From Frankiales bacterium (GTDB lineage: Bacteria; Actinomycetota; Actinomycetes; Mycobacteriales; SCTD01), in NCBI GenBank assembly GCA_025966135.1, contig JAOPVP010000035.1, positions 64,078 through 128,077 on the forward strand: DNA of 64,000 nucleotides, written 5' to 3'. Shown in pieces: positions 1 through 28,911 of the stretch. Made by a program: the position numbers and the translations under genes. Below the pieces are notes generated by a model that made no database searches, was not told the DNA's origin, and saw nothing but the letters and a program-made list of their open reading frames with translations. Position 1 is the first letter of the stretch. Each line of letters opens with the position of its first letter.

Positions 1-59
1 GCTTGGCCCTGGTGTCGGGCAGCCGCGGGGGCACCGCTGTGGGAGAAGCGAAAGGATCG

Positions 60-2156
60 CTACCAAGGCCAAATCGACTTGAGGATTGTCTCTAACGGGT
101 GCGGCACTGGCCCCTTCTGCGCGCTGCTGGCTGACCGGTCGTGCTTGTCCTCCTTTGGCTTGAGTTCCTCCAAGACGGCGTCGCGAGCCGGTCCCTCGGG
201 TATCAGATGGATCATTGCGGGGCGGGGTGCACGCTGTTTGCCGCCTATCGCGCGTGCTGTCACGCGGGCAAGTCGCCGGCAGCGGTCCCAGTCGTCATGC
301 TTGCTGGGCAGCAGCGGCTCGAGGAAATCCCAAGCATCGTCATCCGCGCCCACGGCAAAGGTCTCGTAGAGCACCTGGTAGGTACCGGCGAAGGTCGTGT
401 CGGCCAAATCGCCGCTGTCGGCAAGCGCGGCGGCGAACAACACTGCTGCACGCCGCGGCACCGACGACCACAGGGTTCGGCGGGCCGCAAGCGCCCGCCA
501 GGCAGTCATGCCCTGATCGCTTGCAAACTGGGCGTCTGGCGCAGCATCAGCGGCCACGGCGACCTCCTTGGCGGTCCGCGGCCCGGTCAGGGCCTTGGCG
601 AGCAGGTCGGGACGCTCGCTGATCGCGGCGGTCCATGCGGTGGTGGGTGCCTGGGCAGCCAGCGCGTGCAGCAGTTCTCGCACAGCCTCGGCACCGGAGA
701 CCTCGCGCACGGACCGCCACCGAGGCACGCCCTCCGGGACGCGAACCAAGGCCGCGGTCGCCGGGCGCAGCTCGGCTGCCGTCCGTGCCAACGAACCCTC
801 CACCAGGAGGGTTTCGAAGGAGACCTCGGGCAGGCGTGCCCATTCCGACCACCACGCGGGATCGCTCACGTGGTGGTGCAGCAGATCTACAGCAAGCGAG
901 ACGTTCCTCTCCGCAATGCGTCCGAGGTGGAGTGGCATGGCCTGCTGGGCGACGAGCTCGACCAACACGTTAGGGGCGACCTGGGCTACGGTCGGCTTGC
1001 CGGTGCCCACGCTGGCTAGTGCAGGCACGGCGGGGTCGGCGGTGGCCGTCAGAAGGGAAGTGAGCACGACTTCCGGATCTTCCTGCCAAGCGCGGGCCGC
1101 CCACCCGGCGAGCGCTGCGTCGACCGCCAGCACATGGCCGGCGACGGCGGGCGACAGCACGGAGCGCAGGACGGCCGTAGCCGGGGCAGCGGACAGCAGC
1201 CCGTCGGTTGGAGTGAGCAGGTGCCTCTTGAGTTGACGCATGCTGGTAGGTCGCGGGGCTCGCCGCGCTAGACGCTGGAGTGTCGCCGAGGCGTTCGGAG
1301 GGTTGTCTGCGACGGCCTGCAAGTAGGTCTCGACGAAGAGCGTCATGATGCGACGACGGGAACTGTCCGGACCCACGACGCGCAGGTACTCGCGCAATGG
1401 CCCAGGATCGATAAGGTCGGCGACCAGGACGCGGACAACCTCCGACGGAATTTCATCCTGCGAACTGTCGGGGCCGGCGGGTACGGCGGCACCGCCAGGT
1501 CCGCACAGCAGGTCGAAGGGCCGGTCGGCAAGTTGACGCGCTTCAAGGGCACCAGCGCAGAACGCGAACGCAGAGCGCAGGCGCGGCCACTGCTGATCCC
1601 AAAGCGCCAGACATAGGTCGTTGCGCCGATCCACAAGGTCTGCAGCGAACCAGACCTCCTTCGGCGATCTACCGTAGAGGCGAGCGATAACCGCCGCGAG
1701 GTCCGCGGCGAGATCTGGATCAGTGCCGATCGAGACCGGTGGCGGCGGCACCGCGAGCGGTGCGCGGAATTGCTCGCGATCGGTGTGGTCAGGGTGGCGA
1801 AGCAGCGCCGCAAGCCCCGCAAGCGATGGCCGCCGCATCATGACGGGCGGAACCAGCAGCGTGTGCGTCCACACCACGTTAGGACGCGGCGCGGCTCCCA
1901 TATACCAGGTACGGGCGAGCGCGTACGCCTCCCCAGACGGCAACGGGTATCCGGTGAGGTACCCGTCGTTGCCGGGCGACGGGCGCTGTCCGCTGGCGTC
2001 GCTTAACCGGTCAATCAGCCGTAGGTCTTCGTCGTGTAGGACGCGGCTGCCTGCCAGCATCCGATGCCCCTGGTCGTAGCCGTGCAGCACCTGGTGCACG
2101 ACCGGCTCGGGTTCGCTGGGCACACTCCTGCGCTGTCCGGCAGGCGGGCTGGTCAT
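60..2156 (-). CDS. Large (698 aa) mostly alpha-helical protein, GAP1-like partner of a double-GTPase conflict system
   Basis: Last gene of a 5-gene chain. The ATG at 2156 overlaps the stop of the upstream GTPase (ATGA at 2153-2156), so the track start at 2171 was rejected. N-terminus reads ...VHQVLHGYDQGHRMLAGS..., followed by an Ala/Leu-rich helical body. The family name is from memory of the Pfam GAP1 families and is unverified. Confidence 0.65.
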   Translation of the reverse strand: MTSPPAGQRRSVPSEPEPVVHQVLHGYDQGHRMLAGSRVLHDEDLRLIDRLSDASGQRPSPGNDGYLTGYPLPSGEAYALARTWYMGAAPRPNVVWTHTLLVPPVMMRRPSLAGLAALLRHPDHTDREQFRAPLAVPPPPVSIGTDPDLAADLAAVIARLYGRSPKEVWFAADLVDRRNDLCLALWDQQWPRLRSAFAFCAGALEARQLADRPFDLLCGPGGAAVPAGPDSSQDEIPSEVVRVLVADLIDPGPLREYLRVVGPDSSRRRIMTLFVETYLQAVADNPPNASATLQRLARRAPRPTSMRQLKRHLLTPTDGLLSAAPATAVLRSVLSPAVAGHVLAVDAALAGWAARAWQEDPEVVLTSLLTATADPAVPALASVGTGKPTVAQVAPNVLVELVAQQAMPLHLGRIAERNVSLAVDLLHHHVSDPAWWSEWARLPEVSFETLLVEGSLARTAAELRPATAALVRVPEGVPRWRSVREVSGAEAVRELLHALAAQAPTTAWTAAISERPDLLAKALTGPRTAKEVAVAADAAPDAQFASDQGMTAWRALAARRTLWSSVPRRAAVLFAAALADSGDLADTTFAGTYQVLYETFAVGADDDAWDFLEPLLPSKHDDWDRCRRLARVTARAIGGKQRAPRPAMIHLIPEGPARDAVLEELKPKEDKHDRSASSAQKGPVPHPLETILKSIWPW

Positions 2157-2983
2157 CCCAACGCAGCCCAACGCACCGGTTCGCTGAGGTCGCCGCTGCG
2201 GACGCCGTCGGAATCGACAATGTAGGCGCGGTCGTACGGACGCTTCGCGGCGAGGTCTTGGCTTCCGCCGTAGGCGCCCCCTTGCGCGCAGACCCCATAG
2301 ACGCGGAAGTTAAAGAGTTCGTCGTGGCCGTCGAGGTACTGCCGCAGCATGGGCATCTTGGCCGCCAGCCAGTCCGATGGGGTGATGTCGGGGCATCGGT
2401 CCCAGGCGCTAACCATGACCGCGAGCCGGCACGGTGCCTCGACCGCACGCGTTCGGACCACCCACTCCAGCAGGTCGACCAGGTGCACCTCGCCCGGAAC
2501 CCGCAACGGGTCGAAGTCCTTCTCTACCGCGCCTTCAAACTGCTCGCCGAGAACCTCCGCGAGCTTCCTGGCCTGCGAGATCAACACCCTTGGGCGCTGG
2601 TGATCGGGGTGGGTGAACAGTATGAGCCCGGCCGCCGATCGCACTAGGTCGACGATTCGGGCGTCGGCGTGGCGGTGCACGATGATGTCGCGGAAGCTCT
2701 CGCCCGCGATGTCGGGCAGGCTCAGTTGCACCTGCCGGCTGTCGAAGGCTACGTCCAGCTCGATCAGCTCGCCGTTGTCCTGCGAGGTGCGGCCCACCTG
2801 CTCGCCCGCCAGCCAAGCCATCCGCAACTGCTCCAGATAGCTGCGCTGTTCCGGCTGCCGAATCAGCCTGGTGGCGGTCCCGGTCAGCTGCTCGCTCAGC
2901 AGATGGTAGAGCGCGGCAAGGTAGGTGCTCTTGCCGGTCTCGGGCATACCGACCAGGGTGACCGCGGAGCCTGTATCGGTCAT
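2153..2983 (-). CDS. P-loop GTPase, paralog 1 of a double-GTPase pair
   Basis: G1 GMPETGKST, G3 LPDIAGE, degenerate G4 VSAWD. The ATG at 2983 overlaps the upstream stop (ATGA at 2980-2983). Confidence 0.8.
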   Translation of the reverse strand: MTDTGSAVTLVGMPETGKSTYLAALYHLLSEQLTGTATRLIRQPEQRSYLEQLRMAWLAGEQVGRTSQDNGELIELDVAFDSRQVQLSLPDIAGESFRDIIVHRHADARIVDLVRSAAGLILFTHPDHQRPRVLISQARKLAEVLGEQFEGAVEKDFDPLRVPGEVHLVDLLEWVVRTRAVEAPCRLAVMVSAWDRCPDITPSDWLAAKMPMLRQYLDGHDELFNFRVYGVCAQGGAYGGSQDLAAKRPYDRAYIVDSDGVRSGDLSEPVRWAALG

Positions 2984-4026
2984 GGCAACCTCCGTCCACC
3001 GCTGGCGACGAACCGGCCCGCGATGCCGCTGTGCGGCGCGAACCGGTGCAGCTCCCGGGTGAGTTGCGGGGCGGTCCAGGCCCGTGGGGGACGGGCGGCA
3101 CGAGGGGTGAGGAGCACGGCAAAGAGCTCGGGAACGCCCTCACCGGCCGGCCGTGCAGCCGTACGGTGCAAGGCGGTCGGCAACCACAGATACTGCGCGA
3201 ACGCAAGCAGCCGGTCCAGTTCGGGGGAGAGCCCTTCGGCTTGGCCGCACTTGTCCCACTTCGTGACCACGAGGTCCAGGGGAACTCCGGGCGGGATGTC
3301 GTCACCTTCGGCGAGGGCGCGGATCAGGGTGCGGGTTCGCGTCAGAGTGGCATTCTGCGCGGCCGGGGTTAGCAGCTTCTCGCCGTCGACGAGCACCAGC
3401 ACCCGTGTGGCCGATCGCAGCAGGGGCCGGTAGTCGACCGGGTCGTTGAACTCGATCAGCGTGCGCGCGTGCTCACCGGAAACGTCGCCAAACAGCAAAT
3501 GCCGCCGGTTGCAGTCCGCGTCGCGGACGGCCAGGTGCAGCGCGATGCGACGGGTGTTCTGGCTGGTGCGCTGCGTCTTCTCCTCGCCATGTCCCGACTC
3601 GTGTGTCGCGTCGAAGCTGCGGGCTTCGAACCCGAGCAAACTTAGCGAACTCTCGAACGCCCAGCCCGCGAGTGGGGCGCGGGCAATCTGTTCGTAGATC
3701 GAGGCGAACAGTGTGGTCTTGCCTGCCTCGGCTTCCGCGACGGCCACGATGAGGTCTACCGGATACTGGGCCATGACGGCACTGGCTTCGTCGGCGGTGA
3801 GGGCTTGGCCGGAGTGCGTGGAAACCGGTGCATGCGCGAGCTCCAGCCGCCGCCGTCCCCTGCCTGATGACGGCGCGGGATCGGTCTCGGCAGAACGCGA
3901 TGTCAGCGCCGGTGCGTCGTTGTCGGCGTCTTCGTCGACCAGGGTGTCGTCCCCGTGGTCGTCGTCGGGTTCGCCGGTCAAGGTGTCGTCGGTGTCGATG
4001 TCGTCGCCGGTAGGCGTGGTGGTCAT
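2980..4026 (-). CDS. P-loop GTPase, paralog 2 of a double-GTPase pair, with acidic disordered N-terminal tail
   Basis: G1 AEAEAGKTT, G3 FGDVSGE, G4 VVTKWDK. The true start is the ATG at 4026, which overlaps the upstream stop (ATGA at 4023-4026). The 592-aa track ORF (to 4758) runs through the upstream gene in another frame and is Arg-rich junk there. Confidence 0.8.
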   Translation of the reverse strand: MTTTPTGDDIDTDDTLTGEPDDDHGDDTLVDEDADNDAPALTSRSAETDPAPSSGRGRRRLELAHAPVSTHSGQALTADEASAVMAQYPVDLIVAVAEAEAGKTTLFASIYEQIARAPLAGWAFESSLSLLGFEARSFDATHESGHGEEKTQRTSQNTRRIALHLAVRDADCNRRHLLFGDVSGEHARTLIEFNDPVDYRPLLRSATRVLVLVDGEKLLTPAAQNATLTRTRTLIRALAEGDDIPPGVPLDLVVTKWDKCGQAEGLSPELDRLLAFAQYLWLPTALHRTAARPAGEGVPELFAVLLTPRAARPPRAWTAPQLTRELHRFAPHSGIAGRFVASGGRRLP

Positions 4027-5015
4027 GCCAGGGCTTCCCAGGCGCGCAGCATCATGGCCTGACGCAGGCTGTGTCGCGCCTGCCGTTGCGGGTCGTCGAC
4101 GCCGTTCGGGAGGGATGCGATGAGGAAGGAAACCGGCTCGGGAGCAATGAGCGGTTCGAGCGCGACGGCCTCCGGTTGGTCGCTGAAGGGTGTTGCGGCT
4201 AGTAGCTGGTCGAGGAAGGCGTCGGCGTGCATCGGTGCGGGTAGCAGGGTGGTGCAGGCGGCGAGCTCTCGGGCCGCCAGGACGGCGGTAATAGGCGCGG
4301 CGAGCGTGGCCCAGGGCCGGTCGAGCGTGTTGCTGGCACCCGATAACAGCCATCCGACGTAGTTGCCTTCTTCGGCGCAGATGTCGATGGCCCGCTCGGC
4401 CCATCTGCTGACCTCGTCGACCTGCTCGAGAGTCTTGTCGAAGCCCAACTGAACGTACGTTGCGAACTTGGCGAATGCCGTCGACACCGTCTCCAACGTG
4501 ATACCTGTCTCCGCAGGCATCGCCGCGGCGATCGCCGTCGCCGTCTGCTTGCTCCAGATCTGGATCTTGGGCGCTTCCGGTGGCAACGCGAGTGCTCGTC
4601 GTTGCTCGGCCAACGTGCTGAGCCGATGCTCCGCGTAGCTCGTCAGATCCGGGACGAGGGGTACCCAGCCCAAGAGTCCGGCGAGAGCGCAGCCGTACCC
4701 CGCCAGCGTGCTTAAGCGGTCCTCGTCCTGGTCTCCGTCGAGGATCTCCCACAGGCAAGCCCCGGCCAGGACAGCGGCTTCCCGGTCGTTGTCACGCATC
4801 CGGAAGGTGTTGTCCGCGGCCTTGATCGCGTCCCGGAACCAGATCCCCCGGTCGGCGGACTGTCCTTGTGGGTGGGCGATGGCGATGAGGTCGAGGACCT
4901 GGGCCCCGGTAAGCCCCCCGACGACGTCGTTAGCCCCGACCTCTCGGGCCTTGAGGACGTCTCCAGCGAGCGCGATGCCGACCTCGGCGTGCCAGTCAGC
5001 GAACAGCTTGTTCAT
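4023..5015 (-). CDS. All-helical 330-aa protein (GASH-like, GTPase-associated system helical protein)
   Basis: Clean ORF with normal amino-acid composition. ATGA overlaps at both ends (5012-5015 and 4023-4026). No catalytic motif is visible. The family name is from memory only. Confidence 0.55.
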   Translation of the reverse strand: MNKLFADWHAEVGIALAGDVLKAREVGANDVVGGLTGAQVLDLIAIAHPQGQSADRGIWFRDAIKAADNTFRMRDNDREAAVLAGACLWEILDGDQDEDRLSTLAGYGCALAGLLGWVPLVPDLTSYAEHRLSTLAEQRRALALPPEAPKIQIWSKQTATAIAAAMPAETGITLETVSTAFAKFATYVQLGFDKTLEQVDEVSRWAERAIDICAEEGNYVGWLLSGASNTLDRPWATLAAPITAVLAARELAACTTLLPAPMHADAFLDQLLAATPFSDQPEAVALEPLIAPEPVSFLIASLPNGVDDPQRQARHSLRQAMMLRAWEALA

Positions 5016-6361
5016 GTCGTCCTTTCCTGCCCGCGGAGGGTCGCCGCGGCGATCCGCGCAGCCAGAAGCTGCCGGGTTGCTTCGTCGTGCACGCGACTCA
5101 TTACGTCGAGAATCATCGTGACGTGGTCCTTAGTGCGGTCCTCAACTCTTAGGAGCCCGCAGTCGGTGAGCACTTGCTCCTGGTCCGGTACGGCCAGATC
5201 GAGTAGGTCCCTGTAGAGCCGTCGTTCAGCGTCCACGTTGCCCTCCTCGTCGACCAGCGGTGGCCGACTGTCCGCACCGGCTGACGCATCCTCGTCGACG
5301 TCGATGCGCTCAGTGCATAGTGCCGCAGGGTCGGCCGGCGGAGGGCAGTGCGGCACCGATACGTCAGAGGGCGCTGACGGTGCAGGTATTAGCGGTAGCG
5401 GCAGTTCTTCGTGGTGCGCCTGGCCCTCGCCGTGCCCGGATCGGAATTCGTTCCACTCCGGCCGCAGGACACGCTGATAGATGTCCAGTAGGAGAACGGC
5501 GTGGCCGTGGTCATCGCCGCGCACGTCGAAAGTGAGCCAGTTGTAGGTCGGGTGCCACCCAGGCGGGTCCTCCTCGGGGTGCACCGCGCCGGCGATGATT
5601 TCCAGGCAGTCGTTGACGCGCTGGATGCGCTGGTCGTGCCGGTGCCCGCACAGCAGAGCCCACGCCTTGCCCTTGATCCGGTCGCGAATCTCGACACGAT
5701 CACGGCAGTCTTCTGGGCCGTGGTGCGCCAGGAGGAGGTAGATCGCGCCGGGGGTGTCACGCGGGAGCACCGTCTGGGTCCGGCCGACGACAAGGCTGCC
5801 GTCGGTGTCGTCGCCATCACTGTTGAACACGGTGGTCAGCCCGCGTACGGCCAGGTGGTACCCGCGGGGCAGCCCGATCGTGGCCTGCCACGGCTGGCCG
5901 TTGGCGGCCACCTCGCACCGATACCCGAGGGCGAATTCGTTGTAATTGGCGAGGGGCGCGAGCAGCGGGGCGCCTGGATCCTCAAGGAGGGTGTCTACCA
6001 GCGCGGTGACGTCCGGTACCGGGCACGTCCGCAGGCCCTGGCGGGCGGTCCGCGCAGAGGGGGAGATCAGCGGCCAGTGCACATCGTGGTTGCCGGGCAC
6101 GGTGAGGACTTGGCAGTTCGCGGTGCCGACCAAGGCAGCGACCTCGTCCAGCCAGGTCTTGGCTCGACCGTACTCCGCCTCGTCCCCGCTGAAGGCGATG
6201 TCTCCAGTGACGACGAGTGCGGTTGCTGGGCCGAGTCTTGCTTTCATCCGCTCCAGGTCGCGCATCAGCTCAACCCGAACGCCACGGTTCCGTTCGGCCG
6301 CGGCGTTGGTCTTGCCGGTGAAGTGGATGTCGCTCAGGTGAACCAATACAGCAGGCTCCAC
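5012..6361 (-). CDS. Calcineurin-like metallophosphoesterase with C-terminal helical extension (candidate effector)
   Basis: Motifs VHLSDIHF, VVTGDIAFSG, PGNHD, LLAHH, LCGHRH. GTG start at 6361 is preceded by GGAAGGAG about 10 nt upstream. Confidence 0.85.
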   Translation of the reverse strand: MEPAVLVHLSDIHFTGKTNAAAERNRGVRVELMRDLERMKARLGPATALVVTGDIAFSGDEAEYGRAKTWLDEVAALVGTANCQVLTVPGNHDVHWPLISPSARTARQGLRTCPVPDVTALVDTLLEDPGAPLLAPLANYNEFALGYRCEVAANGQPWQATIGLPRGYHLAVRGLTTVFNSDGDDTDGSLVVGRTQTVLPRDTPGAIYLLLAHHGPEDCRDRVEIRDRIKGKAWALLCGHRHDQRIQRVNDCLEIIAGAVHPEEDPPGWHPTYNWLTFDVRGDDHGHAVLLLDIYQRVLRPEWNEFRSGHGEGQAHHEELPLPLIPAPSAPSDVSVPHCPPPADPAALCTERIDVDEDASAGADSRPPLVDEEGNVDAERRLYRDLLDLAVPDQEQVLTDCGLLRVEDRTKDHVTMILDVMSRVHDEATRQLLAARIAAATLRGQERTT

Positions 6362-7287
6362 TCCTACGCGCTCCTTCCGGCACTGACGCGGCGCCCGTCG
6401 ACGTCACATGTTCTGGACAGGCTGGCACTGTGCCACACCGCACCGACATCCAGCCCCCGTCTTGCCATACCGGGCAAGCTGCCCGGGTAGAGCTGGGAGA
6501 AGTACTGACCGTCGGGGGTCGTCGGCGCGCAACCGGGCGAGCACCAGTGGTCCAGCCCTGGCGTGAGCAGCGCCCAGGATCCTGGTACGACCGATCGAGC
6601 GGGGCGTGCCTCCTTGGGCCATGTCGTTCACCACCGAGTACTCCTGTGATGTCCCGCTCGGCAAAGGGCGGTCCGACCAGAGAGGTCTGCACCGAGGGGC
6701 GCCGCCGGGCGGCTCGCCCGGGGCGGGTAGCTGACCTTCGGTGTGGAGCTTGGAGAAGCTGCAACGTGACTGACAGTGACGCCCGTTCGTGCCAGCGCGG
6801 CGGTTGGAAAAGCTTGTCGGGGTGCAGGTAGCGCGGGGCCTCATGGACTAGGCGCAGGACGGTTGGGGGGTTCCTCCAGCGGGTCGACGATCTTGACCGG
6901 AAGTTCCTGGGGTCTGGCCACCGGTCAGCGTTGGTCGTGCAGCAGCTGCTCGAGGGTCGGGCCCGCGGAACCGGTCGCACAGGGGTAGTCGACGGACTGG
7001 CCTGAGCTCGAGGGGCCGTTTCCAGACGCTGGAGGGCGCTGGTTGGCAGTGGCGAACCCATGCCAACGAGGCCCTGAGAGCCGTGGCGGTCCCCCAGGGC
7101 GCGTGGATGAGCCCGGCGGCTGCGGGAGCGTGTCCTCACGCGCCCGGAGCCGCACTCGGGGATGATGGCAGGGCCTCGACGAGCGTTGTCGACGGCTGGT
7201 GTCCGAGGTGCCGTTGACTTGCCGAGTGGCTCGTCCGGGCACTGTGCGTCTCGGGCGCCTGAGGGGCGCCCACGGAGAAGAGGGATC

Positions 7288-8385
7288 GTGACGGAGTTCA
7301 GCGACAAGCAGGTGGTCTACTCGACCGCGCTGGGCAGTCAGGTCTGCGGTGACTCCCTGGAGTTGCTGGCACAGATGGCCGACGAGTCCGTCGACCTGAT
7401 CGTGACCAGCCCGCCCTTCGCCCTACTGCGGGCCAAGAAGTACGGCAACGAGGACCAGGCCGACTACATAGCATGGTTGGCGAAGTTCGGCGAGGCGGCT
7501 CACCGGGTGCTCAAGCCCACGGGCAGCCTGGTGATCGACCTCGGCGGTGCGTACGTCAAGGGCAGGCCGACACGGTCGCTCTACCAGTACCGGGTGCTGC
7601 TTAAATTCGTTGATGACCTCGGGTACCACCTGGCGGAGGAGTTCTTCTGGTACAACCCGTCCAAGCTGCCGAGCCCGATCGAGTGGGTGAACAAGCAGCG
7701 AATCCGTGTCAAGGACGCGGTCAACACCGTGTGGTGGCTGTCCAAGACGGAGCGGCCGAAGGCTGACGTCAACCAGGTACTGGTGCCGTACTCGGCGCGC
7801 ATGAACAAGCTCCTCGAGAACCCGGCGGCGTTCTACGATGCCAAGGCCCGGCCGAGCGAGCACGACATCAGCATGAAGTTCGGCCGCGACAACGGTGGGG
7901 CCATCCCGACGAACCTGCTGACGATTCCGAACACCGACTCGAACTCGGGCTATCTGCGGACGGCACGAGCGCTGGACATCCGGTCGCACCCGGCCCGCTT
8001 CCCTGAGGGGCTGCCGGAGTTCTTCATCAAGTTCTTGACCGAACCGGGCGACCTGGTGGTCGACATCTTCGCCGGGTCGAACACGACCGGCATGGTGGCC
8101 GAGCGGTTGGGCCGTCGCTGGCTCGGGTTCGAGCTTGACCGCGAGTACGCGGCCCTATCGATTCTGCGGTTCGTGTCCGACCGTCCGTTGGACGTCGTCC
8201 GGACGCTGTACGACCTCGCGCAAGAAAAGTGGATCGACCTAACTCCATCTCCGGCGCCGTCTGCGGCTGTCGCTGGGGCTAGGACGACGAGTGGTCGCAG
8301 ATCACGCACGAAGAAGGCCGTCGTCGAGGCGGCCGTCGAGGTTATGGCTGGTCTACCAGTCAAGAAGCGCGCACGTCGGACCTGA
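7288..8385 (+). CDS. Beta-class N4-cytosine/N6-adenine DNA methyltransferase (SPPF type, M.PvuII-like)
   Basis: Motif IV DLIVTSPPFAL lies N-terminal and motif I VVDIFAGSNTTG lies C-terminal. GTG at 7288 is preceded by GAGAAGAGGGA. The track start at 7162 adds an Arg/Gly-rich leader that is unlikely to be real. Confidence 0.9.
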   Translation: MTEFSDKQVVYSTALGSQVCGDSLELLAQMADESVDLIVTSPPFALLRAKKYGNEDQADYIAWLAKFGEAAHRVLKPTGSLVIDLGGAYVKGRPTRSLYQYRVLLKFVDDLGYHLAEEFFWYNPSKLPSPIEWVNKQRIRVKDAVNTVWWLSKTERPKADVNQVLVPYSARMNKLLENPAAFYDAKARPSEHDISMKFGRDNGGAIPTNLLTIPNTDSNSGYLRTARALDIRSHPARFPEGLPEFFIKFLTEPGDLVVDIFAGSNTTGMVAERLGRRWLGFELDREYAALSILRFVSDRPLDVVRTLYDLAQEKWIDLTPSPAPSAAVAGARTTSGRRSRTKKAVVEAAVEVMAGLPVKKRARRT

Positions 8386-8519: not shown

Positions 8520-8915
8520 CTACAGCTGGGCTGCCGCTGGGGTGTACATGAGGTCGGCGAAGTGGGTGACTGCGCCGCTCTGCAGGTCCTCCCACAACTT
8601 CACGAGGCCCAGGCTCATCAGGGTCTCAGCGATGACGTACGGGTCGGCCGCGTCGGGGTACAGAGCCGCCATCAGAGAGCGGATGTCGCCCGTGGGGTCG
8701 AAGGACCCAACGTTCTGGTTCTGGCCGTCGCCGGCCTTACCGAAGCCTTGGCCCCGAACGGGCTGCAGCTCACAGCGGATGGCGTAAGCGAGGCCGACGC
8801 GGATGACCTGCTGGCCTTCCTCGAACGGGAACCTGTCGCGGATGGCGTCCTTGGCGATCTCTGCGGGTCCGGTCAGCGCAATGTTGACGCGCCCACCGCC
8901 TGTCGGCTCCGTCAC
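8520..8915 (-). CDS. Small DndE-like protein (uncertain)
   Basis: 131 aa. The GTG start overlaps the stop of the upstream ATPase (GTGA at 8912-8915). Size, position after a DndD-like gene and the sequence pattern (..VIRVGLAYAIR.. / ..ETLMSLGLVKLWEDL..) recall DndE. Not verified. Confidence 0.45.
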   Translation of the reverse strand: MTEPTGGGRVNIALTGPAEIAKDAIRDRFPFEEGQQVIRVGLAYAIRCELQPVRGQGFGKAGDGQNQNVGSFDPTGDIRSLMAALYPDAADPYVIAETLMSLGLVKLWEDLQSGAVTHFADLMYTPAAAQL

Positions 8916-10873
8916 GTGTTCCTCAGCTCGGTGATGGTGGTGTTGTTGGCGGTGACTCGCTTGAGCTCGTACTCCGCAAGGAGCCGGCCGTGCAGCTGCT
9001 TGCGTGCGGTCGCTCGGTCAAGCTCTCCTTCGTGGACGAGCAGGAAAACCTGCTTGGCCAGGACGGTGAGCTGCCCGACGACGGCCTCGACGTGCTCGGG
9101 ATCCAGTCGACCGAACGGGGAGTCCATGACGACGGGACCGGTGATCGGGGAGCACTCCTGGAGCGCGCCGATGAGGCTGAGGGCCACGAGGTGCTCGTAG
9201 CCGGCGGAACGGTCCTCGACGGTGTTGCCCTTGCTGTCCAGGATGCGGAGGCCGTACTGGTCGTTGATCGTGAGCTTGGCGAAGTCGACCTCTGCGCGCA
9301 TGTTGCGGAACAGCTTGGAGGCCGTCTCCTGCACGTCCTCCTTGAGCTTGTCGCGGTAGGCGACAACCGCCTGGTCGAACAGTGCCGCGAGCGCTGCGGT
9401 GACCTTCTCGCGGGCAAGGGTCGCGGGGTCGGCGGTGCCGGCGCCGGCGGCCTCGATGGAGGCGCGCAGCTTGTCGATCTGGCCGCCCATGTTGTTGTAG
9501 CTGTTGGTCTGCTCGAGGAAGACCTCCTGCGCCTTCTCGAGCCGAACGGCGAGTTCACTGCCGCGCTTGGCGAGCGCGTTGAGCTCCTCTGCTGGGGTGT
9601 CTCGGAGCTGGTCGTCGAGCTGCTCGAGATCGTCCTTGGTGTCGGCGACTTGAACGTCGAGCTCGCGGTAGGCCCTCTCGAGCGCACGCAGGTCAGCTCG
9701 GGCTTGCTCGTCGACGATGCGGCGGAGCGTCTTGACGCGGGCGGCCGCCGCGTGGACGTGGTCGTTCAGCTCGACCAGGGAGCTGCCGTTGGCCGGTGCC
9801 AGGACCTGCTCGAGGTGGTGACGGTGGGGTTCGTCCAACGGTGACGCGCACGCGGGGCACGCCTGCTCGCCGCTGCCGCGGAAGGTGGTGCTCAGGGCGA
9901 CCGCGACGGTGACCGTCGACAGCCGCTCACGGTCTTGCTCCAGCTCGGCCTCGAGCTCGTCGACGGCTGCAGTGAGGGGATCGACGAGGACGGCCCGCCA
10001 CGCGTTGGCGAGGCCGGCGGCAAACGCGGTCTTCGCCTCCTGATGCCTGTCCTGCAGCTCCTTGAGGCTCTCCCGCATCAGGTCACGACGTCCGAGCAGG
10101 TCCAGCTTGCTCTGCTGCTCTGCGAGCGCCTCTTCAACTTGGCGTGCCTCAACCTGGAGCGTCGCGATGTGCTCGCTCTCGGTGTCCTTGTTCGCCCGGT
10201 AGCTGCTGCGCATGGTCTGCGCCTGTTCCAGGGCTTGTCCGAGTTCGCGGGTACTGCGTTCGCGCTTGGCGGCCTCAGCGATCGCCTTTCCCGCTTCCTC
10301 CGCCAGGGTGCGCATATCTCGCGCCGCGTTAACTACGACCGGAACGCCGAGGACCTTCTCGATCGACTCGCGCAGCGGCGAGCCCGTAGGGGCTTCGTCG
10401 TCGACGAGCCGCTCGTACTGGTCGAGAAGCTCACCATCGAACAGAAAGAACTGCTCGATCTCAGGGGGCATCAGTTCCGCGAGCCGCTTGCTGGTGTCGG
10501 AGGCTGTGAGGGTGACGCCGTCCTTGACGAGCGTGACGTCCTCACTGAGGGCACCGCCCTCGTTCACGATGGAGCGGGTGAGGTCCCAGCGGGAACCCTC
10601 TGCGGTGAAGCCGAGCCGGACCCGGCACGTGACGGCTGCGCCGTCCGCTTCGGCGAGGGCGTCACGGTTTACGAGCCGGTCCGGGGTCACGGCGCGGCTG
10701 CCGCGGCTGCGGGCAGCGCCGGTCCACGCCCACCGGATGGCGTTGAGGAAGCTCGTCTTCCCCTTGCCGTTGCGGCCGTAGACGATGACGACGCCTTCCC
10801 CGTCCGGGAAGGTCATGGTCTGGGTGCCGGCGAAGACACGGAAGTTCGCGACCGTGAGCTCGTGGTACCTCAT
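8912..10873 (-). CDS. DndD/SMC/Rad50-like ABC ATPase with long coiled coil and central CxxC
   Basis: Walker A GRNGKGKTS, signature-like RSAGYEHLVALSL, Walker B/D-loop PVVMDSPFGRLD. Heptad-rich middle region with CPAC at its centre. ATGA overlap with the upstream small gene at 10870-10873. Confidence 0.85.
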   Translation of the reverse strand: MRYHELTVANFRVFAGTQTMTFPDGEGVVIVYGRNGKGKTSFLNAIRWAWTGAARSRGSRAVTPDRLVNRDALAEADGAAVTCRVRLGFTAEGSRWDLTRSIVNEGGALSEDVTLVKDGVTLTASDTSKRLAELMPPEIEQFFLFDGELLDQYERLVDDEAPTGSPLRESIEKVLGVPVVVNAARDMRTLAEEAGKAIAEAAKRERSTRELGQALEQAQTMRSSYRANKDTESEHIATLQVEARQVEEALAEQQSKLDLLGRRDLMRESLKELQDRHQEAKTAFAAGLANAWRAVLVDPLTAAVDELEAELEQDRERLSTVTVAVALSTTFRGSGEQACPACASPLDEPHRHHLEQVLAPANGSSLVELNDHVHAAAARVKTLRRIVDEQARADLRALERAYRELDVQVADTKDDLEQLDDQLRDTPAEELNALAKRGSELAVRLEKAQEVFLEQTNSYNNMGGQIDKLRASIEAAGAGTADPATLAREKVTAALAALFDQAVVAYRDKLKEDVQETASKLFRNMRAEVDFAKLTINDQYGLRILDSKGNTVEDRSAGYEHLVALSLIGALQECSPITGPVVMDSPFGRLDPEHVEAVVGQLTVLAKQVFLLVHEGELDRATARKQLHGRLLAEYELKRVTANNTTITELRNT

Positions 10874-11055
10874 GGTGCTGCCGGCTTGAGGTGCTCCGTG
10901 ATGGCCTGGGTGACTTGGTCCCGCGCGCGCAGACGGTCGTCGTGGCTGGAGGCCTCGATCTCGAGGATCCGGGCGACGAGCTCTGCTGGGAGCTCGGGGA
11001 AGGACCGGGCACGGACGGCTTCCACCGTCTCGCCAAGCGCTCCTAGGTCCCTCAT
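10870..11055 (-). CDS. Small (61 aa) helical protein of unknown function
   Basis: ATG at 11055 is preceded by GAGGAA. An alternative TTG at 11103 would overlap the helicase stop. Wedged between the helicase and the ATPase. Confidence 0.5.
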   Translation of the reverse strand: MRDLGALGETVEAVRARSFPELPAELVARILEIEASSHDDRLRARDQVTQAITEHLKPAAP

Positions 11056-11099
11056 GTGATTCCTCGTTCTCTCGGATGGTCCGCTTCTAGCTGCGGGTG

Positions 11100-13220
11100 T
11101 CAAGCTTCTGCCTCCTCGTCGTCTTCGATGCCGGAATCGAGTTCGGCGTAGAGGCCCGCCAGGTCGATGCCGACGTCGAGGCAGGCCTGTTCGAGCAATA
11201 GTCGGGAGTCCGTGTTCAGGGCGCTGCGGGCGAACTGGCCGGCGCGGGCGAGTTCCCCCCAGACCAGGGCGCGCGTGGTGTCGTCCACCTCGCCAGCCGG
11301 TAGCACGATCAGGTCATAGATGATGGCCAGCGTCTTCGTGCCCGAGGTGCGCAGGACGCGACCGCGCCGCTGGATGAACTCGCGAGGGTTGCGGGAGGAG
11401 GCGGCGATCATGGCGTGGCTGCATTCGGGGATGTCGACGCCCTCGTCAAGACACTTGATCGAGACGACGACCCCGCCGTTCACGCGGAAGTGACGAAGGG
11501 TGGCCTTCTTGTCGGCCTCCATGTCGGAGTGGTAGGTGAGCGTGTCGATGCCGGCGTCACGGAGCCCGGCGGCCACTAGGTCCATCTGGTCGATGTCGTC
11601 GCAGTAGACGAGCCAGTGGTCGCCCGTGGTGTAGTGCGTACACAGCGTTGCGATCACGGTCGGTGCCTTGGCGGCCGCCTTCTTGGCGATGCGTGCTCTC
11701 TGCATGATCATGACTTTGACGGCGGGTCTCTTGAGCGCGTCGGCTCCGCTGCCGCCGGCGGCAATGGCTCTGCCGATCTTGCGGGTCAGCTCCGCCCACT
11801 GCTGCTGCTCTTGGTCGTCGAGCCGGACGGTCTGCGGGTGGTATAGGTAGTTGCAAAGCACGCCGTCTCGCATTGCGTCCTCAAGCGAGTAGCGGTGGAC
11901 GATCCCGCCGAAGTAGTCGAACAGGCGCTCGGTGCCCTCGGGGTCACCGGCACGTTCGGGGGTGGCTGACAGCCCCAGCCGGTAGGGCGTGTCGAGCTGG
12001 AGCAGCCCTGCGTAGGACGGAGCTCCCAGTCGGTGGACCTCATCTCCGACGACCAGCAGCTCGCTCGCCGTCCGAACCTGGCTCAGGAACCGCTCGGAGG
12101 CCGCGGTGGGAGCGACTGCCACGATCACGCGCTGCGTTCGGGTATCGGTGACCCAGGTGCTGAGCTTGTCCTTCCAGTCCACGTTGCCGGCTCCGCACAG
12201 GTGGACCCGCCGGCCAGCCGGGCCGAGCTCTTCGCGCAGTTGCGCGAACCACTGGGTCGCGACGAGCTCGGTGGGGGCAATGACGATGGTGGGGCCGACG
12301 TGCTGGCCGATCACGGTGATGCCGGTGACGGTCTTGCCGGAGCCGGTCGCGTGAGCCAGGATGCCGCGCTTGCCGTTCGCTTCCCACGCGGCGATGCCGG
12401 TGACCTGCTGCTTGCGCAGTGGACGCCCGGTCGGGGTGACCTGGGTGGTGGCGACCCGGTCTTTCACGGCCGCGAGCTCATCGACGATCTCGCGCCAGTC
12501 CGTTCCTTCGGTTGCCTGCTGCAGAACGACCTGGAGGCCCGCGGGGAGGCTAAGAACCTCGATGCCGTGGGCCTGCCCTGCCCACAGGTGGTCGAACCGC
12601 CGTACGGCGTTGCTGACCCTCTTGGCGTCCCGGTCCCCCGCCCAGCTGGGCCAGGCGTCGATGGACTCGACGTTGCCTCGGGCGCTGGACAGTCCCAGGT
12701 AGCTCTCATTGGCCGAGCCCCGAAAGCCGATCGCGTTCCCGACCTTGTCGTGGAACAGACCGACCTTGTCGTGGAACATCCGGCGGTCGCCGGGGTCCTT
12801 CGCGTCTTCGAGCCTGGCCAACTTGACCTCGACGATGCCTGCGGCGACCAGACCGGCGAAGGCCAGGGCGGGCTTGCGGAGTTCGTAGCGACCCAGGAGC
12901 TCGTCGAGCTCGCCGGCGAGCGTGCTGGCGAGTTCAGCGTCGTCCCGGGCCGCGTAGCCGCGGCCGGCGTTTTCGGTGTCCACAGGACTCAATCGCGGGG
13001 AGCAGAGCAGCCGGATCTTTCCGTGACGTTCGACGAAGCCCCGCAAAGCTGGCCAGTACAGCAGGAAGGCTCCGCTGGAGAAGAAGCCGGTGATGCGGTC
13101 GTAGCGATCCGCCCCGCCCATCGCTGGTCCGTAGAAGTCGCTGGCTAAGTCCGAGGCGTCGCTGCTGTAGTCGGGCTCCGGAGTCCACAGGGTGCCGTTC
13201 CACCCCAGGGCCGCGGTCAC
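11100..13220 (-). CDS. PLD-family (HKD) nuclease domain fused to SF2 (ResIII/DEAH) helicase
   Basis: N-terminal FHDKVGLFHDKVGNAIGFRGSANES (HxK...GSxN). Helicase motif I AHATGSGKT and motif II VVGDEVH. C-terminal helicase motifs QRRGRVLR. Confidence 0.9.
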   Translation of the reverse strand: MTAALGWNGTLWTPEPDYSSDASDLASDFYGPAMGGADRYDRITGFFSSGAFLLYWPALRGFVERHGKIRLLCSPRLSPVDTENAGRGYAARDDAELASTLAGELDELLGRYELRKPALAFAGLVAAGIVEVKLARLEDAKDPGDRRMFHDKVGLFHDKVGNAIGFRGSANESYLGLSSARGNVESIDAWPSWAGDRDAKRVSNAVRRFDHLWAGQAHGIEVLSLPAGLQVVLQQATEGTDWREIVDELAAVKDRVATTQVTPTGRPLRKQQVTGIAAWEANGKRGILAHATGSGKTVTGITVIGQHVGPTIVIAPTELVATQWFAQLREELGPAGRRVHLCGAGNVDWKDKLSTWVTDTRTQRVIVAVAPTAASERFLSQVRTASELLVVGDEVHRLGAPSYAGLLQLDTPYRLGLSATPERAGDPEGTERLFDYFGGIVHRYSLEDAMRDGVLCNYLYHPQTVRLDDQEQQQWAELTRKIGRAIAAGGSGADALKRPAVKVMIMQRARIAKKAAAKAPTVIATLCTHYTTGDHWLVYCDDIDQMDLVAAGLRDAGIDTLTYHSDMEADKKATLRHFRVNGGVVVSIKCLDEGVDIPECSHAMIAASSRNPREFIQRRGRVLRTSGTKTLAIIYDLIVLPAGEVDDTTRALVWGELARAGQFARSALNTDSRLLLEQACLDVGIDLAGLYAELDSGIEDDEEAEA

Positions 13221-13227
13221 TGCGGCC

Positions 13228-13836
13228 TCACGTGGTCGTGTCCGCGATCAGTCGGTCTACGGTGCGCTGCCAGCGCAGCTCGAGGGCGCGCTCGAGGTTG
13301 CCCGCGGTAGCGGCGACGACGGTCTCTCGCAGGCCGGAGTTGCGCATCCGTCGCTCCTGCTCGGCCAGCCCCTTGGTCATGGCCGAGTACAGAGTGGAGT
13401 CCAGAACTTGGCAGCCTCGCGAGAAGGCTATGCCGTCGCCGATGTCGTAAACGCCCGCGTCCCAGAGGGCGTAGACCCCGAGGCTCTGCGAGTAGCCGGC
13501 GAGCACGACGAACGCGCCGTTCGACCAGTCGAAGTGCGCGGGCTGCTTGCCGCTGTTGAGCGTGATCTGGATGCGGAACGCGCCCATCTGCCTCTCGGAG
13601 GTGTGAGTCGTAAGGTTGAACAGGTACACGCGCAGGAGGGGCGGCAGCGAGTCCACGGCATGGAGCACGAGCGGCTTGTACAGCGCCGCGTTGGGCGTTG
13701 CTGGCGTGGCTGCGCCCTCGAGGTCGCGGATCATCTGCTGATGCGCCCGGGTCGTGCTCGCGGCAGCCCTGACCCGCGTGGCGCTCAGCTCGACCAGCGA
13801 CTCCATACCTGGCAGCTTCTCGCACTCTGCGCTCAT
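13228..13836 (-). CDS. Hypothetical protein, first gene of the helicase/ATPase operon (possible DNA-recognition module)
   Basis: Clean ORF ending 7 nt before the helicase start. The start is uncertain (TTG 13857, ATG 13836 or ATG 13806). No catalytic motif recognised. Confidence 0.6.
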   Translation of the reverse strand: MSAECEKLPGMESLVELSATRVRAAASTTRAHQQMIRDLEGAATPATPNAALYKPLVLHAVDSLPPLLRVYLFNLTTHTSERQMGAFRIQITLNSGKQPAHFDWSNGAFVVLAGYSQSLGVYALWDAGVYDIGDGIAFSRGCQVLDSTLYSAMTKGLAEQERRMRNSGLRETVVAATAGNLERALELRWQRTVDRLIADTTT

Positions 13837-14430
13837 TGGAAGCGACAACGCGCTCAACGATCAGGACTCGGGCATGCTCCCCAACGTCCCGACTCCAGCG
13901 CAGCGGGCAGGTGGGCCCGTCCCGCGCCTGCCGGGCGGCCTTCCAGCCCCCGTTGTGATCTGTGCCGCCCGGCAAAGACGTGTCAGAGTGCGGGCGGACC
14001 CGGCACAGTGGTCGGCATTACGAAGGACCGGCTCTCGGTGGGCAGCAAGGGCAGCCACCACCGAGGCTCGTCTGGGTACTACAGCAACCAACGTGGCCTC
14101 TTCGAGCTCCGCTCCCGCACGCACGACGCAGCCGCCTGCTTCGCAGCCGAGGAAGGCTGGTGGCTGCATTTGCTGGGACTGGGTGCCCTCGGACCACGAC
14201 GAGGTGGGGTCACGGTCGTCGGGAAGCCGAACCCGCCGTGGAGCGCTCGCTCCGATGAACGCGCCCGTGGTAGAGGCCGTGCGGCCCCAGCCCCTGATAT
14301 CCCAACCAGCCGAGTAGGCGACGGAACAAGACTGACACTGGCGCGATCAAGTTCATCTGACACTGTTCTCGTTACCACGACGTGAAACTTGCAAAGTCCC
14401 CCGACAGACTCACGAGCATGGAGGCGCGAC

Positions 14431-15186: not shown

Positions 15187-16551
15187 TCAGCTCGATTCCT
15201 CCAGCAAATCCGCACGTGAGGGTTCCGAGTTCATCTTGGCGCGAGTGGCGATCCGTTCGGCCAGTTCAGCGAGCCGTCCGACGTCGCGTACGCCCTCAGT
15301 CATCTCCGCCTGGGCCGCCTCAAGCGCCGCACGATGCGTTGCAACGGAACCTTCAGGCGCCACAGAGCCAAAGCCGGTGGTTACTGAGACGTGGTCGGGC
15401 TCAACAGCGATGCGCAACGTGTAGCGACCTGGGTACTCCTGGCCCGGCACCTCCCTGGAGACCTGACACACCACTTCCACCAGCGGTCGCCTCTCCAGAC
15501 TCAGCAGTCGGCAGGCGACAAGCGAGTCAAGCAAGTGCGCGCCCTCGAATCGAACAGCGTGCAGAAGCGGACGTCGCGCGTCGGACTCGTCGTCGTCGCC
15601 GGCCTGCTCTCCGACCTTAAACTTGGCGACCGTCAAGTTGAAGTTCTTGAAGCCGCTGGCGGGGAGCCGCGTGTGCAGCAAGTCCAGCAGAAACAAACTC
15701 CCCGGGTTGAGCTGTGGAACGTTGCCCTGCACGTCTGCTGGGACCAAGGACAGCGCCGACGCTGTCGTTACGTCCGCTGCGGTTTCAAGTGCCCGAACCG
15801 CGGCACGAGCCACCAGCGAAGAAGCCCCGGAGACGACCAGCGGGGCCCCGGGGGCGATGCGCACCGATGCATGGTGATTGGTCGGAACCGCGCGGAGGGT
15901 CGGACGCGAGTTGATCTCGTCCAAGTCGGTTTGGTAAGCCTTATACGAACCCGCGAGATTGAATGCGCCTGCGGCGACGCGATCTACAGACTCGAAGACG
16001 AACCACCTGGCCACACCGATACGGATGTAGCGGCCCAGCACGTAGTCCAGTTTGCTAAGGACCTGCTTAGTGACGAGCGGATCGGCCAAAGGGAACAGAC
16101 GACCGACGTGGCCGCGCTCCGGAGGTGGGGCTTCTTCGTTCTGAAGTACGAGACGCGCTACCTCCTCTGAATCCCAGGAGTAGGCGCGTCCAATTCTTGT
16201 CGCCAACACTTCCGCCGAACCGACTGAACGCAATTCACGCTCTTCGGCCAAACGACGCAAGGTGCTGGCCTTGAGACCAATCAATGCCTTCTTGATGACC
16301 TCACGCTCAACCTCGTCAGCGTCGAGGCCGCCGGTGTCCGATTCGACAGCAGGGACCACCTCATCCTCGAGGGCCTCGCGAACGGCAATCGACAGGTAGT
16401 CACTTACATCCGCAGCCAAGCGGATGCTGTCGTCACGACCGCCTTTGGATCGCAGCTGCAGTCCGAAGTTTCGCGCCTCGCTCAGGAGGTCCGAAACCGC
16501 TCGGTCGAGATCCTCTGCATGAAGCACCATGCGGTTCGCCCTAGCCACCAT
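15187..16551 (-). CDS. Hypothetical 454-aa protein with an HeH/SAP/Rho_N-like motif
   Basis: Normal composition. LKASTLRRLAEERELRSVGSAEVLATRI resembles a SAP/Rho-N helix-extension-helix. The start overlaps the upstream gene end by 11 nt. Confidence 0.7.
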   Translation of the reverse strand: MVARANRMVLHAEDLDRAVSDLLSEARNFGLQLRSKGGRDDSIRLAADVSDYLSIAVREALEDEVVPAVESDTGGLDADEVEREVIKKALIGLKASTLRRLAEERELRSVGSAEVLATRIGRAYSWDSEEVARLVLQNEEAPPPERGHVGRLFPLADPLVTKQVLSKLDYVLGRYIRIGVARWFVFESVDRVAAGAFNLAGSYKAYQTDLDEINSRPTLRAVPTNHHASVRIAPGAPLVVSGASSLVARAAVRALETAADVTTASALSLVPADVQGNVPQLNPGSLFLLDLLHTRLPASGFKNFNLTVAKFKVGEQAGDDDESDARRPLLHAVRFEGAHLLDSLVACRLLSLERRPLVEVVCQVSREVPGQEYPGRYTLRIAVEPDHVSVTTGFGSVAPEGSVATHRAALEAAQAEMTEGVRDVGRLAELAERIATRAKMNSEPSRADLLEESS

Positions 16552-17710: not shown

Positions 17711-17794
17711 CGTCGCTGCCACCACCGTGACGAGCACGCAGACGCACCTGAGCGGGCGATTCAGGCCGGGCACGGGGAGGGCAACGGCAGAGGC

Positions 17795-18103
17795 TCAGGC
17801 GAAATCGCGCCAGATTGCGCCACCCTCAGATGGCTCAAAGCCCGACTGTCCGGGCCATGGCACGGCACCGAACTCCCAACGGAAGAGCAAGTTGACGAGC
17901 ACCGCGATCAAGGCACCGTCTGCCCAGCGTATCCATCGTGGCAACCCCATAATGGGCCTCGTCACAAAGATCTGAATCGGCAAGAGGAGAAGCCAGGTCA
18001 CGATCGCCAACGGAACAACGATCCAAAGCAGGACCGCCCGCAGGAGATAAAGGCCCAGTCCCGCCAACACCATTCTCGCGATTCGCATGGTCGCCCCAAA
18101 CAC
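17795..18103 (-). CDS. Small membrane protein, candidate immunity for the orphan Rhs tip
   Basis: Hydrophobic 102-aa ORF starting 3 nt after the orphan tip stop (GTG 18103, or ATG 18088). Confidence 0.6.
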   Translation of the reverse strand: MFGATMRIARMVLAGLGLYLLRAVLLWIVVPLAIVTWLLLLPIQIFVTRPIMGLPRWIRWADGALIAVLVNLLFRWEFGAVPWPGQSGFEPSEGGAIWRDFA

Positions 18104-18105
18104 GT

Positions 18106-19340: not shown

Positions 19341-19460
19341 CTGCCCGCGCGGTCGTGGTCTGCCGACCGCCGGCTGGTCACTGTCGGCGAGCACCAGGCC
19401 GGCACCCCCGAAGGGGGGCCAACTGTGTGGCATGTCCTCAGCTGTTGCCCGGCTGCTCGC
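19341..19460. repeat. Copy B of the duplicated structured element
   Basis: See copy A. The hairpin here (19401-19420) is GGCACCCCC-GAA-GGGGGGCC, against GGTATCCCC-GCAG-GGGGATCC in copy A. Confidence 0.7.
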
Positions 19461-19551
19461 TCACGGTGAGCGCGGGACACGCGCCGGCCGGGTACTCGCG
19501 AAGCGATAACACCTGTGTGCCTGGGCAACCGGCCCGGAGGGCAGGCGGGCA

Positions 19552-27909: not shown

Positions 27910-28069
27910 GCTAGGGCATGGCCGACGACGGCAAATTCGTCACGACCGTGCCGGAAGACAGGCCGGACAGGCCACCCGAGCGAGCGAGGGGAATGGCTGC
28001 GTAGAGCCCGGTCTCCCGGGCCGGCGTGAGCGCCGCGGGGCCGAAGGTCCCGTCGGTGAACCGGGCCGA

Positions 28070-28832: not shown

Positions 28833-28843
28833 GGTCCGCTCCT

Positions 28844-28890: not shown

Positions 28891-28911
28891 GTCAACCCTG
28901 AGGGCATCAGC

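Follow-up and report, generated by a model that had tools for sequence, protein, structure and literature searches.

What is encoded by a run of five overlapping bacterial genes that includes two paralogous GTPases and a phosphoesterase, and does this set of genes act as an immune module? The question is raised by a 64,000-nt stretch of DNA from a Frankiales bacterium (GCA_025966135.1, contig JAOPVP010000035.1, positions 64,078 to 128,077 of the forward strand; the whole of this stretch is referred to here as the window), whose minus strand carries between 60 and 6361 five consecutive genes in the order effector, GASH, GTPase2, GTPase1 and GAP1, as taken from the open reading frame (ORF) list and from a reading of the strand itself (Table 1). 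Judged from the sequences of its products, this operon is an intact GAP1-N1-type DO-GTPase conflict system, a type that has already been described computationally, and we think it probable that it is a double-GTPase system carried as cargo of an integrative or conjugative island and working by the switch-effector mechanism proposed for the type. Related loci are designated below by label (L002-L087), and a fusion protein as P0137. The exact window proteins are also on record from a Frankiales metagenome-assembled genome, with the locus tags JWM02_1314 and JWM02_1315.

We base the assignment on a Pfam scan of the five products, in which all matches lay above the curated (gathering) cut-offs. 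GTPase1 was recognized by DO-GTPase1 (203.8 bits, E = 4e-60), GTPase2 by DO-GTPase2 (104.6 bits, E = 7.9e-30), GASH by the model of the same name (39.7 bits, cut-off 27, E = 4.7e-10), residues 20-107 of GAP1 by GAP1-N1 (89.1 bits, E = 2.5e-25) and the effector by Metallophos (27.6 bits, cut-off 21.5, E = 4.6e-06); the Pfam models of the system are PF19975, PF19993, PF19994, PF20012 and PF19976. An earlier reading of the DNA, made from the letters alone (the original prediction), had named DO-GTPase1/DO-GTPase2, GASH, GAP1 and a phosphoesterase as the families concerned, and the scan recovered all of them; the Aravind-group paper that it placed in 2021 is that of Kaur, Burroughs, Iyer and Aravind, which appeared in eLife in 2020 (PMC7159879). 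In that paper, DO-GTPase conflict systems of the GAP1-N1 type are predicted computationally and are said, in section 28, to comprise GAP1, GASH and two DO-GTPases, one of them with a zinc ribbon; the commonest effector is a calcineurin-type phosphoesterase, a GTPase-associated adaptor domain (GAAD) couples effectors to the core, and the effector repertoire overlaps those of the iSTAND and VMAP systems. With this description the window locus shares the two TRAFAC GTPases with a DxxGE motif, the downstream GAP1-N1 protein, GASH, the phosphoesterase-GAAD effector and the gene order. It differs in its actinobacterial host, whereas the paper reports such systems chiefly from Proteobacteria, Bacteroidetes and Spirochaetes; in a GTPase2 that has an acidic, Cys-free tail instead of the zinc ribbon (given there for 60% of DO-GTPases, and thus typical rather than universal) and Ala in place of the first P-loop Gly; in a GAAD too divergent for the Pfam model; and in having ATGA at all four gene junctions. 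Published before and covered by Pfam models, the type is not new; the window locus re-identifies this predicted system, with the acidic tail, the Ala P-loop and the divergent GAAD as peculiarities at the level of the clade.

Comparison across genomes then indicates which parts of the operon belong together. When the species representatives of GTDB were searched with an alignment of GTPase1, 80 loci were obtained, to which hidden Markov models (HMMs) built from the five proteins of the window were then applied. At least 63 of these 80 unrelated loci keep the gene order effector, GASH, GTPase2, GTPase1, GAP1, most of the others being contig-end fragments or frameshifted copies, and the loci that keep it span Planctomycetota, Verrucomicrobiota, Acidobacteriota, Chloroflexota, Pseudomonadota, Myxococcota, Bacteroidota, Spirochaetota, Actinomycetota and the candidate phyla radiation; the five genes are accordingly conserved as a unit, as the original prediction required. 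Within this unit the effector slot alone varies. Forty-eight loci have a phosphoesterase with a C-terminal GAAD region, and in 20 loci the protein shares only the C-terminal ~75-110 residues and joins the GAAD to a different N-terminal domain. When nine of these 20 non-phosphoesterase effectors were scanned with Pfam, GAAD was found in all nine, accompanied by TIR and EAD11 in one, by PNP_UDP_1 in one, by a weak, sub-threshold GNAT similarity in five and by nothing else in two. A constant core combined with an exchangeable effector is the signature of conflict systems. The four closer metagenomic relatives (45-60% identity) retain the cassette, and the closest relatives of the window reach 63% identity at most. 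The family as a whole is rare, with 1,009 clusters (50% identity, E <= 1e-30) among 1.84 billion representatives.

One type of exchanged effector recurs. A GAAD-fused protein of ~320-350 aa is present in L002, L003, L005, L010, L036 and L040 (at ~7000-8000 in each), mainly in Verrucomicrobiota and Acidobacteriota; its GNAT similarity is sub-threshold in five of the six (E 0.012-0.084), and in L003 GAAD alone was matched. This possible GNAT-GAAD effector type was not found in the sections of Kaur et al. (2020) that were consulted.

The gene junctions call for a more restrained interpretation than they had first received. Reading of the minus strand confirmed the coordinates of the five same-strand genes and of the four ATGA overlaps, from which obligate co-translation and fixed stoichiometry had been deduced for all five products; this was an over-reading, as three of the overlaps are poorly conserved across loci. 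The 4-nt overlap of GTPase2 and GTPase1 (window 2980-2983) is present in 52 of the 80 related loci and is the only widely kept junction, and at the other three junctions a 4-nt overlap occurs in 13-15 of 69-79 loci. We therefore rejected the set of four ATGA overlaps as a conserved trait of the system. A scan of positions 1-7400 for promoters and terminators found no promoter-like site, and terminator-like sites did not exceed the shuffle expectation. No hydrophobic stretch compatible with a membrane helix was detected in any of the five proteins; the window system is cytoplasmic.

The two GTPases form the centre of the system, and the six motif strings originally quoted for them are all found in the sequences. 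GTPase1 has the P-loop GMPETGKST, the switch II motif DIAGE and SAWD at the G4 position instead of NKxD, and GTPase2 has the P-loop AEAEAGKTT, the switch II motif DVSGE and TKWD at G4. They had been taken for divergent paralogues, and an hhalign comparison of the two family alignments bears this out (98.7% probability at E = 2.8e-16, over the stretch between the P-loop and G4); in addition, each protein matches the Pfam model of the other. Family alignments show that both retain the GK[ST] of the P-loop, the switch-I Thr, DxxGE and the Asp of G4. In the GTPase1 family G17, K18, D91, G94, S192, A193, W194 and D195 are invariant and T66 and E95 nearly so; in the GTPase2 family G102, K103, T154, G184, E185 and D258 are invariant and K256 is conserved. 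These alignments divide the earlier claim that one copy has a degenerate guanine-specificity motif: SAWD is present, with the Asp kept and the N/T-K lost, but it is a family-invariant feature and not the decay of a copy. The notion of SAWD as the mark of a decayed GTPase1 was rejected, since the motif is invariant across the DO-GTPase1 family. The altered first P-loop glycine of GTPase2 was correctly noticed, the residue being Ala in the window and Gly in at least 90% of the family; apart from the window, only L081 and L082, which are most closely related to it, have the change. Among the N-terminal 95 aa of GTPase2 there are 22 Asp or Glu residues and no Cys, and this tail is followed by RGRRRL, at the place where most relatives have an N-terminal Cys-rich zinc-ribbon motif (C..C..C..CP). 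GTPase2 of L081-L083 likewise lacks the zinc ribbon and has an acidic, Cys-free tail, and that of L084 retains the ribbon.

Two observations speak for a joint action of the GTPases. Because their junction overlap is so widely kept and because a natural single-chain fusion exists, in which P0137 (660 aa) joins a zinc-ribbon DO-GTPase2 (residues 6-344) to a DO-GTPase1 (374-659), we suggest that GTPase1 and GTPase2 act as a pair; P0137 is a 'Rosetta stone' for their interaction. The AlphaFold2 model of GTPase1 (pLDDT 88.9) is a small-GTPase G domain with insertions, whose best fold matches in the PDB, at E ~1e-5, are the G domains of Arl1/Arl6/Arf, RagD/Gtr, GIMAP7 and EF-Tu; a PDB sequence-profile search with GTPase1 gave no match at E <= 0.01 and touched the P-loop region only. 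For GTPase2, the best profile match in the PDB was the 115-residue 'phosphate-loop protein' 6c2u (E = 1.3e-6), and the others were unrelated P-loop NTPases (SRP54, RecA and ABC transporters), aligned mainly around the P-loop. The eukaryotic Rag/Gtr proteins, which are paired paralogous small GTPases on a helical scaffold, offer an analogy, with RagD (2q3f) and Gtr (8fw5_D) among the best fold matches of GTPase1. There is, however, no specific sequence relationship, the TM-scores are ~0.4-0.57, Arl/Arf, GIMAP7 and EF-Tu match equally well, and the roadblock domain is absent; the resemblance concerns the mode of action and not family membership.

GAP1 lies directly downstream of GTPase1, with which it shares an ATGA overlap, and the downstream arrangement also holds in 79 of the 80 loci. 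The 698-aa protein had been described as helical, which the AlphaFold2 model (pLDDT 90.8) bears out only in part: both strands and helices occur over residues 19-219, and residues 238-665 are exclusively helical, so that an N-terminal alpha/beta domain of ~200 aa precedes an alpha-solenoid of ~430 aa. Invariant residues of the N-terminal domain are G69, W84, R91, T97, W190, F199 and R207. With respect to GAP1-M and GAP1-C, a Pfam scan at E <= 0.1 gave GAP1-N1 alone. The full 698 aa align with 46 homologues, and the related loci match over ~650-718 aa. A fold search with the model against the PDB and BFVD returned nothing at E <= 0.001 and only generic alpha-solenoids; the matches to Ric-8A and importin were too weak, and we draw no claim from them. 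PDB sequence-profile searches with GAP1 and GASH found only designed helical proteins, with insignificant E-values. The position of GASH between the effector and GTPase2 is conserved in the related loci.

The metal-binding motifs of the effector (D11-x-H13, G53-D54, G90-N91-H92-D93, H213-H214 and G239-H240-x-H242) are intact and invariant or nearly invariant in 26 homologues. The best NCBIfam match is DS8_antiphage (NF053861, E = 1.3e-20, residues 8-280), followed by the DS-9A model DS9_1 (1.3e-14). DS-8 and DS-9 are validated anti-phage systems of E. coli in which the catalytic residues of the metallophosphatase are required for defence, and the authors relate the DS-8 metallophosphatase to the nucleotide phosphodiesterase SMPDL3A (PMC13092281). 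The effector domain of the window is homologous to the metallophosphatase domain of both systems. In DS-8 this domain is fused to a NACHT STAND NTPase, and in DS-9 the metallophosphatase is accompanied by HAD; the window effector, in contrast, is a separate protein with a predicted GAAD tether to the GTPase/GAP1 core. The DS8_antiphage score is 72.8 bits against an equivalog cut-off of 790, with positions 1-269 of the 994 in the model covered, and the effector has no NACHT domain; its candidacy as a DS-8 orthologue was therefore rejected.

It could be argued that the same system deploys its phosphoesterase as a nuclease of the Mre11/SbcD kind, with invading DNA as its direct target, and not as a phosphodiesterase of nucleotides or second messengers. 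The best PADLOC match of the effector is a model labelled 'Effector: Endonuclease' (3.3e-8), the NCBIfam models of SbcD (3.3e-4) and PdeM (3.4e-4) are weakly matched, and SbcD and Mre11 also appear in the PDB profile search at 2e-4 to 1e-3. In that search, however, the phosphodiesterases GpdQ (7e-10) and Rv0805/Icc (2e-7) rank above them; the DS-8 metallophosphatase, linked by its authors to SMPDL3A, is likewise a better match in NCBIfam, and the TIR and PNP effectors found in the same slot act on nucleotides. All of these matches cover mainly the N-terminal ~100 residues, which makes any subfamily assignment weak, and we regard a nuclease as doubtful while still giving it some weight. Because the alternative occupants of the slot, TIR and PNP, act on nucleotides and because of the PDB profile result, we favour a nucleotide-directed phosphodiesterase over a DNA nuclease, a weak preference given that the matches cover mainly the N-terminal third of the protein.

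The link between this domain and the rest of the system depends on the C-terminus of the effector. Phosphoesterases of other loci match GAAD at 1e-7 to 1e-26; the window effector scored only 6-8 bits against local GAAD HMMs in two tests. When a profile of the C-terminus, built from the window and four close relatives, was compared with a 29-sequence GAAD profile, hhalign gave 95.6% (E = 1.3e-8, 67 columns). From this profile-profile match we conclude that the window effector carries a divergent GAAD.

The genomic setting of the operon and of its relatives points to carriage on mobile elements. The original prediction had placed the operon at the head of an island with other conflict systems, and this holds: genes for a type II methylase, for a Pbe system and for an RHS-repeat protein lie in the window (Table 1), and a TrwC relaxase lies just beyond its start. 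The latter was seen in a second assembly of the same locus (L085, 8269-10317), in which a DnaB-N protein and the TrwC relaxase follow directly downstream of GAP1. Close relatives adjoin phage-type integrases, TrwC-primase or transposases. A survey of 131 ORFs from the flanks of 36 distant loci showed recurring integrases, resolvases, DDE transposases, Trb/T4SS genes, PglZ, BrxL, PLD and PD-T4-6-like kinases, with no individual neighbour conserved. GTPase1 homologues were found on 22 plasmids, 15 of them conjugative. With integrases, relaxases, transposases, conjugation and defence genes, conjugative plasmids and a temperate phage in evidence, the expected proximity of the orthologues to defence or mobile genes is borne out, as a tally made without a background control. 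We take the island for a probable integrative conjugative element. A scan of the window for tRNA genes found none, hence there is no visible tRNA integration site.

Such a setting would also suit an addiction or stabilization module of the mobile element, in which the phosphoesterase is a toxin restrained by the GTPases, GAP1 and GASH and set free by loss of the element and not by phage infection; the cassette lies on an island with a TrwC relaxase, and its relatives occur on conjugative plasmids, one of them beside ccdAB, and beside integrases. We consider this explanation quite unlikely, since five genes with two NTPases are far more elaborate than known addiction modules, swappable TIR and PNP effectors are hallmarks of immune systems, defence genes of the Pbe, PglZ/BrxL and Abi kinds are found nearby, and defence systems are themselves typical cargo of mobile elements. 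The same distribution bears on a further explanation, by which the operon serves housekeeping as a GTPase module for signalling or the cytoskeleton, MglA/MglB- or Rag-like, that is in the island by chance and whose phosphoesterase tunes a cellular nucleotide signal. The fold matches of GTPase1 to the regulatory small GTPases Arl, Rag and Ras agree with it, as does the finding of Kaur et al. (2020) that GAP1-N1 systems have no link to a multicellular habit. However, the family is rare, patchy and scattered over unrelated phyla, it is carried on plasmids and a phage, its effector slot is variable and the GC content of the region is unusual for this host, all of which makes a housekeeping role highly improbable.

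Two of the mobile relatives are of interest in their own right. A full five-gene cassette (L086) is located on NZ_CP060051.1, a conjugative IncF plasmid of clinical Klebsiella pneumoniae, at 17733-23853, where its neighbours are ccdAB, an integrase, an Abi-family protein and a TrlF AAA-like ATPase; in RefSeq the phosphoesterase and GASH have names, and the other three products are called 'hypothetical'. A megablast search of this Klebsiella cassette against complete E. coli genomes gave no match. A Leptospira temperate phage (LE1-like, KF114878.1; L087, 13374-19959) carries a DO-GTPase cassette with an adjacent integrase, and here the effector is of the phosphorylase family and lies downstream, not upstream, of an 845-aa GAP1-like protein.

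For the conflict system that we prefer, the mechanism follows the proposal of Kaur et al. (2020), sharpened by the present results. We infer that the two paralogous TRAFAC-class GTPases would form a heterodimeric nucleotide switch, with GAP1 as the dedicated partner and scaffold of the pair, and that the metallophosphoesterase would be held on this complex by its C-terminal GAAD, presumably docked on GAP1; GASH would be a further helical partner, possibly with a role in sensing or regulation. A cue derived from an invader would change the nucleotide state of the GTPases and lead to release or activation of the phosphoesterase, which would then hydrolyse a phosphodiester, most likely in a nucleotide or a nucleotide-derived metabolite, and bring about arrest of the infected cell or of the invading element. 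A bolder version may be entertained, in which the GTPases are an asymmetric, Rag-like obligate heterodimer, GTPase1, with its SAWD, differs in nucleotide specificity or has a nucleotide state that serves regulation only, the invariant Arg91 of GAP1 is an arginine finger, and the acidic tail that, followed by RGRRRL, stands in place of the GTPase2 zinc ribbon in this actinobacterial clade is an autoinhibitory or nucleic-acid-mimicking sensor. We hold this combination to be speculative and rather unlikely; if true, it would represent a mode of immune sensing and switching that has no characterized bacterial counterpart.

Several observations weigh against the conflict-system interpretation, or at least against its details. 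A signal-generating enzyme is missing from the operon, as is any obvious sensor domain. GTPase2, with its Ala P-loop and no zinc ribbon, may differ in activity or regulation from its counterpart in a typical system, and the Pfam GAAD model does not detect the domain in the single sequence of the window effector. By a rough tally without a genomic background control, genes of mobile elements or of defence make up about one-fifth of the 131 flanking ORFs. The defence models of PADLOC (2023) and NCBIfam (2026) gave no meaningful match to the four core proteins, and in the DefensePredictor supplements the sole mention of DO-GTPase2 concerns a match over 22 P-loop residues in the Eleos protein LeoA2. 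Finally, a literature search on DO-GTPase, GAP1 and GASH proteins found no experimental study, the eLife 2020 paper being the only relevant one. The earlier statement that experimental evidence was lacking thus stands for the core proteins and no longer holds in full for the effector domain, the family of which has been validated in DS-8 and DS-9.

In STAND/NLR-like defence proteins, such as Avs and the NACHT proteins, an NTPase switch is combined with a repeat or solenoid module and with an exchangeable effector, which may be a TIR domain, a nuclease or a phosphoesterase. The window system follows the same logic, but its switch is a pair of TRAFAC GTPases and not a STAND ATPase, and its parts are separate polypeptides joined through an adaptor domain. 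DO-GTPase systems are among the larger published predictions of bacterial immunity, and no phenotype, structure, trigger or substrate was found for them in the literature. The window locus is a clean, complete and cytoplasmic example with intact catalytic motifs and a good candidate for the first functional study of the system class, for which tractable orthologues exist on the K. pneumoniae IncF plasmid, on Pantoea and Aeromonas plasmids and in the Leptospira temperate phage. If the GTPase pair were shown to gate an exchangeable effector, a GTPase-switch paradigm would take its place beside STAND and CBASS, and such work would also help to identify the substrate of DS-8-type metallophosphatases.

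Table 1. Features of the operon and of the neighbouring genes, with positions counted from the first letter of the window
Feature	Position	Strand	Size and start	Description or match
Shine-Dalgarno-like GGAAGGAG	6371-6378	-		9 nt upstream of the effector GTG at 6361; sequence reading
Effector	5012-6361	-	449 aa, GTG	metallophosphoesterase domain, poorly conserved linker, C-terminal GAAD-like adaptor
Divergent GAAD	5036-5236	-		effector residues ~376-442
GASH	4023-5015	-	330 aa, ATG	helical accessory protein specific to GAP1-N1 systems
GTPase2 (DO-GTPase2)	2980-4026	-	348 aa, ATG	acidic N-terminal tail, then G domain
GTPase1 (DO-GTPase1)	2153-2983	-	276 aa, ATG
GAP1	60-2156	-	698 aa, ATG	alpha/beta N-terminal domain and alpha-solenoid
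ATGA overlaps	5015-5012, 4026-4023, 2983-2980, 2156-2153	-	4 nt each	downstream ATG overlaps upstream TGA each time
Type II N4/N6 DNA methyltransferase	7162-8385	+		Pfam 4.9e-42; PADLOC MTase_II 7.9e-146; divergent from the cassette
Pbe-type four-gene defence system	8520-13857	-
131-aa ORF	8520-8915	-	131 aa	no family match; ATGA overlap with next gene at 8912-8915
PbeC/DndD-like	8912-10873	-		PADLOC 1.1e-151
PbeA helicase	11100-13220	-		PADLOC 2.1e-184
MTaX1	13228-13857	-		'methylase-associated X1' protein
ORF	15187-16551	-	454 aa	no Pfam or PADLOC match
ORF	18122-19150	-	342 aa	no Pfam or PADLOC match
RHS-repeat protein	19970-26290	-	2,106 aa	with CBM96-like module
OpuAC-type ABC transporter	28935-32181			housekeeping
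GAF/PAS/SpoIIE phosphatase	32341-35274			with HATPase domain; housekeeping

The extent of the island can be read from its base composition and gene content. GC is 0.63-0.69 over the first 28 kb, with a minimum of 0.632 at 16-18 kb, and 0.70-0.73 afterwards; this rise, together with the housekeeping genes from ~28.9 kb, makes a boundary at ~28000-30000 likely. Within the island, the methyltransferase, for which a cognate restriction enzyme was not identified, may belong with the MTaX1 and Pbe genes and not be an orphan, and the RHS-repeat protein looks like a polymorphic toxin.

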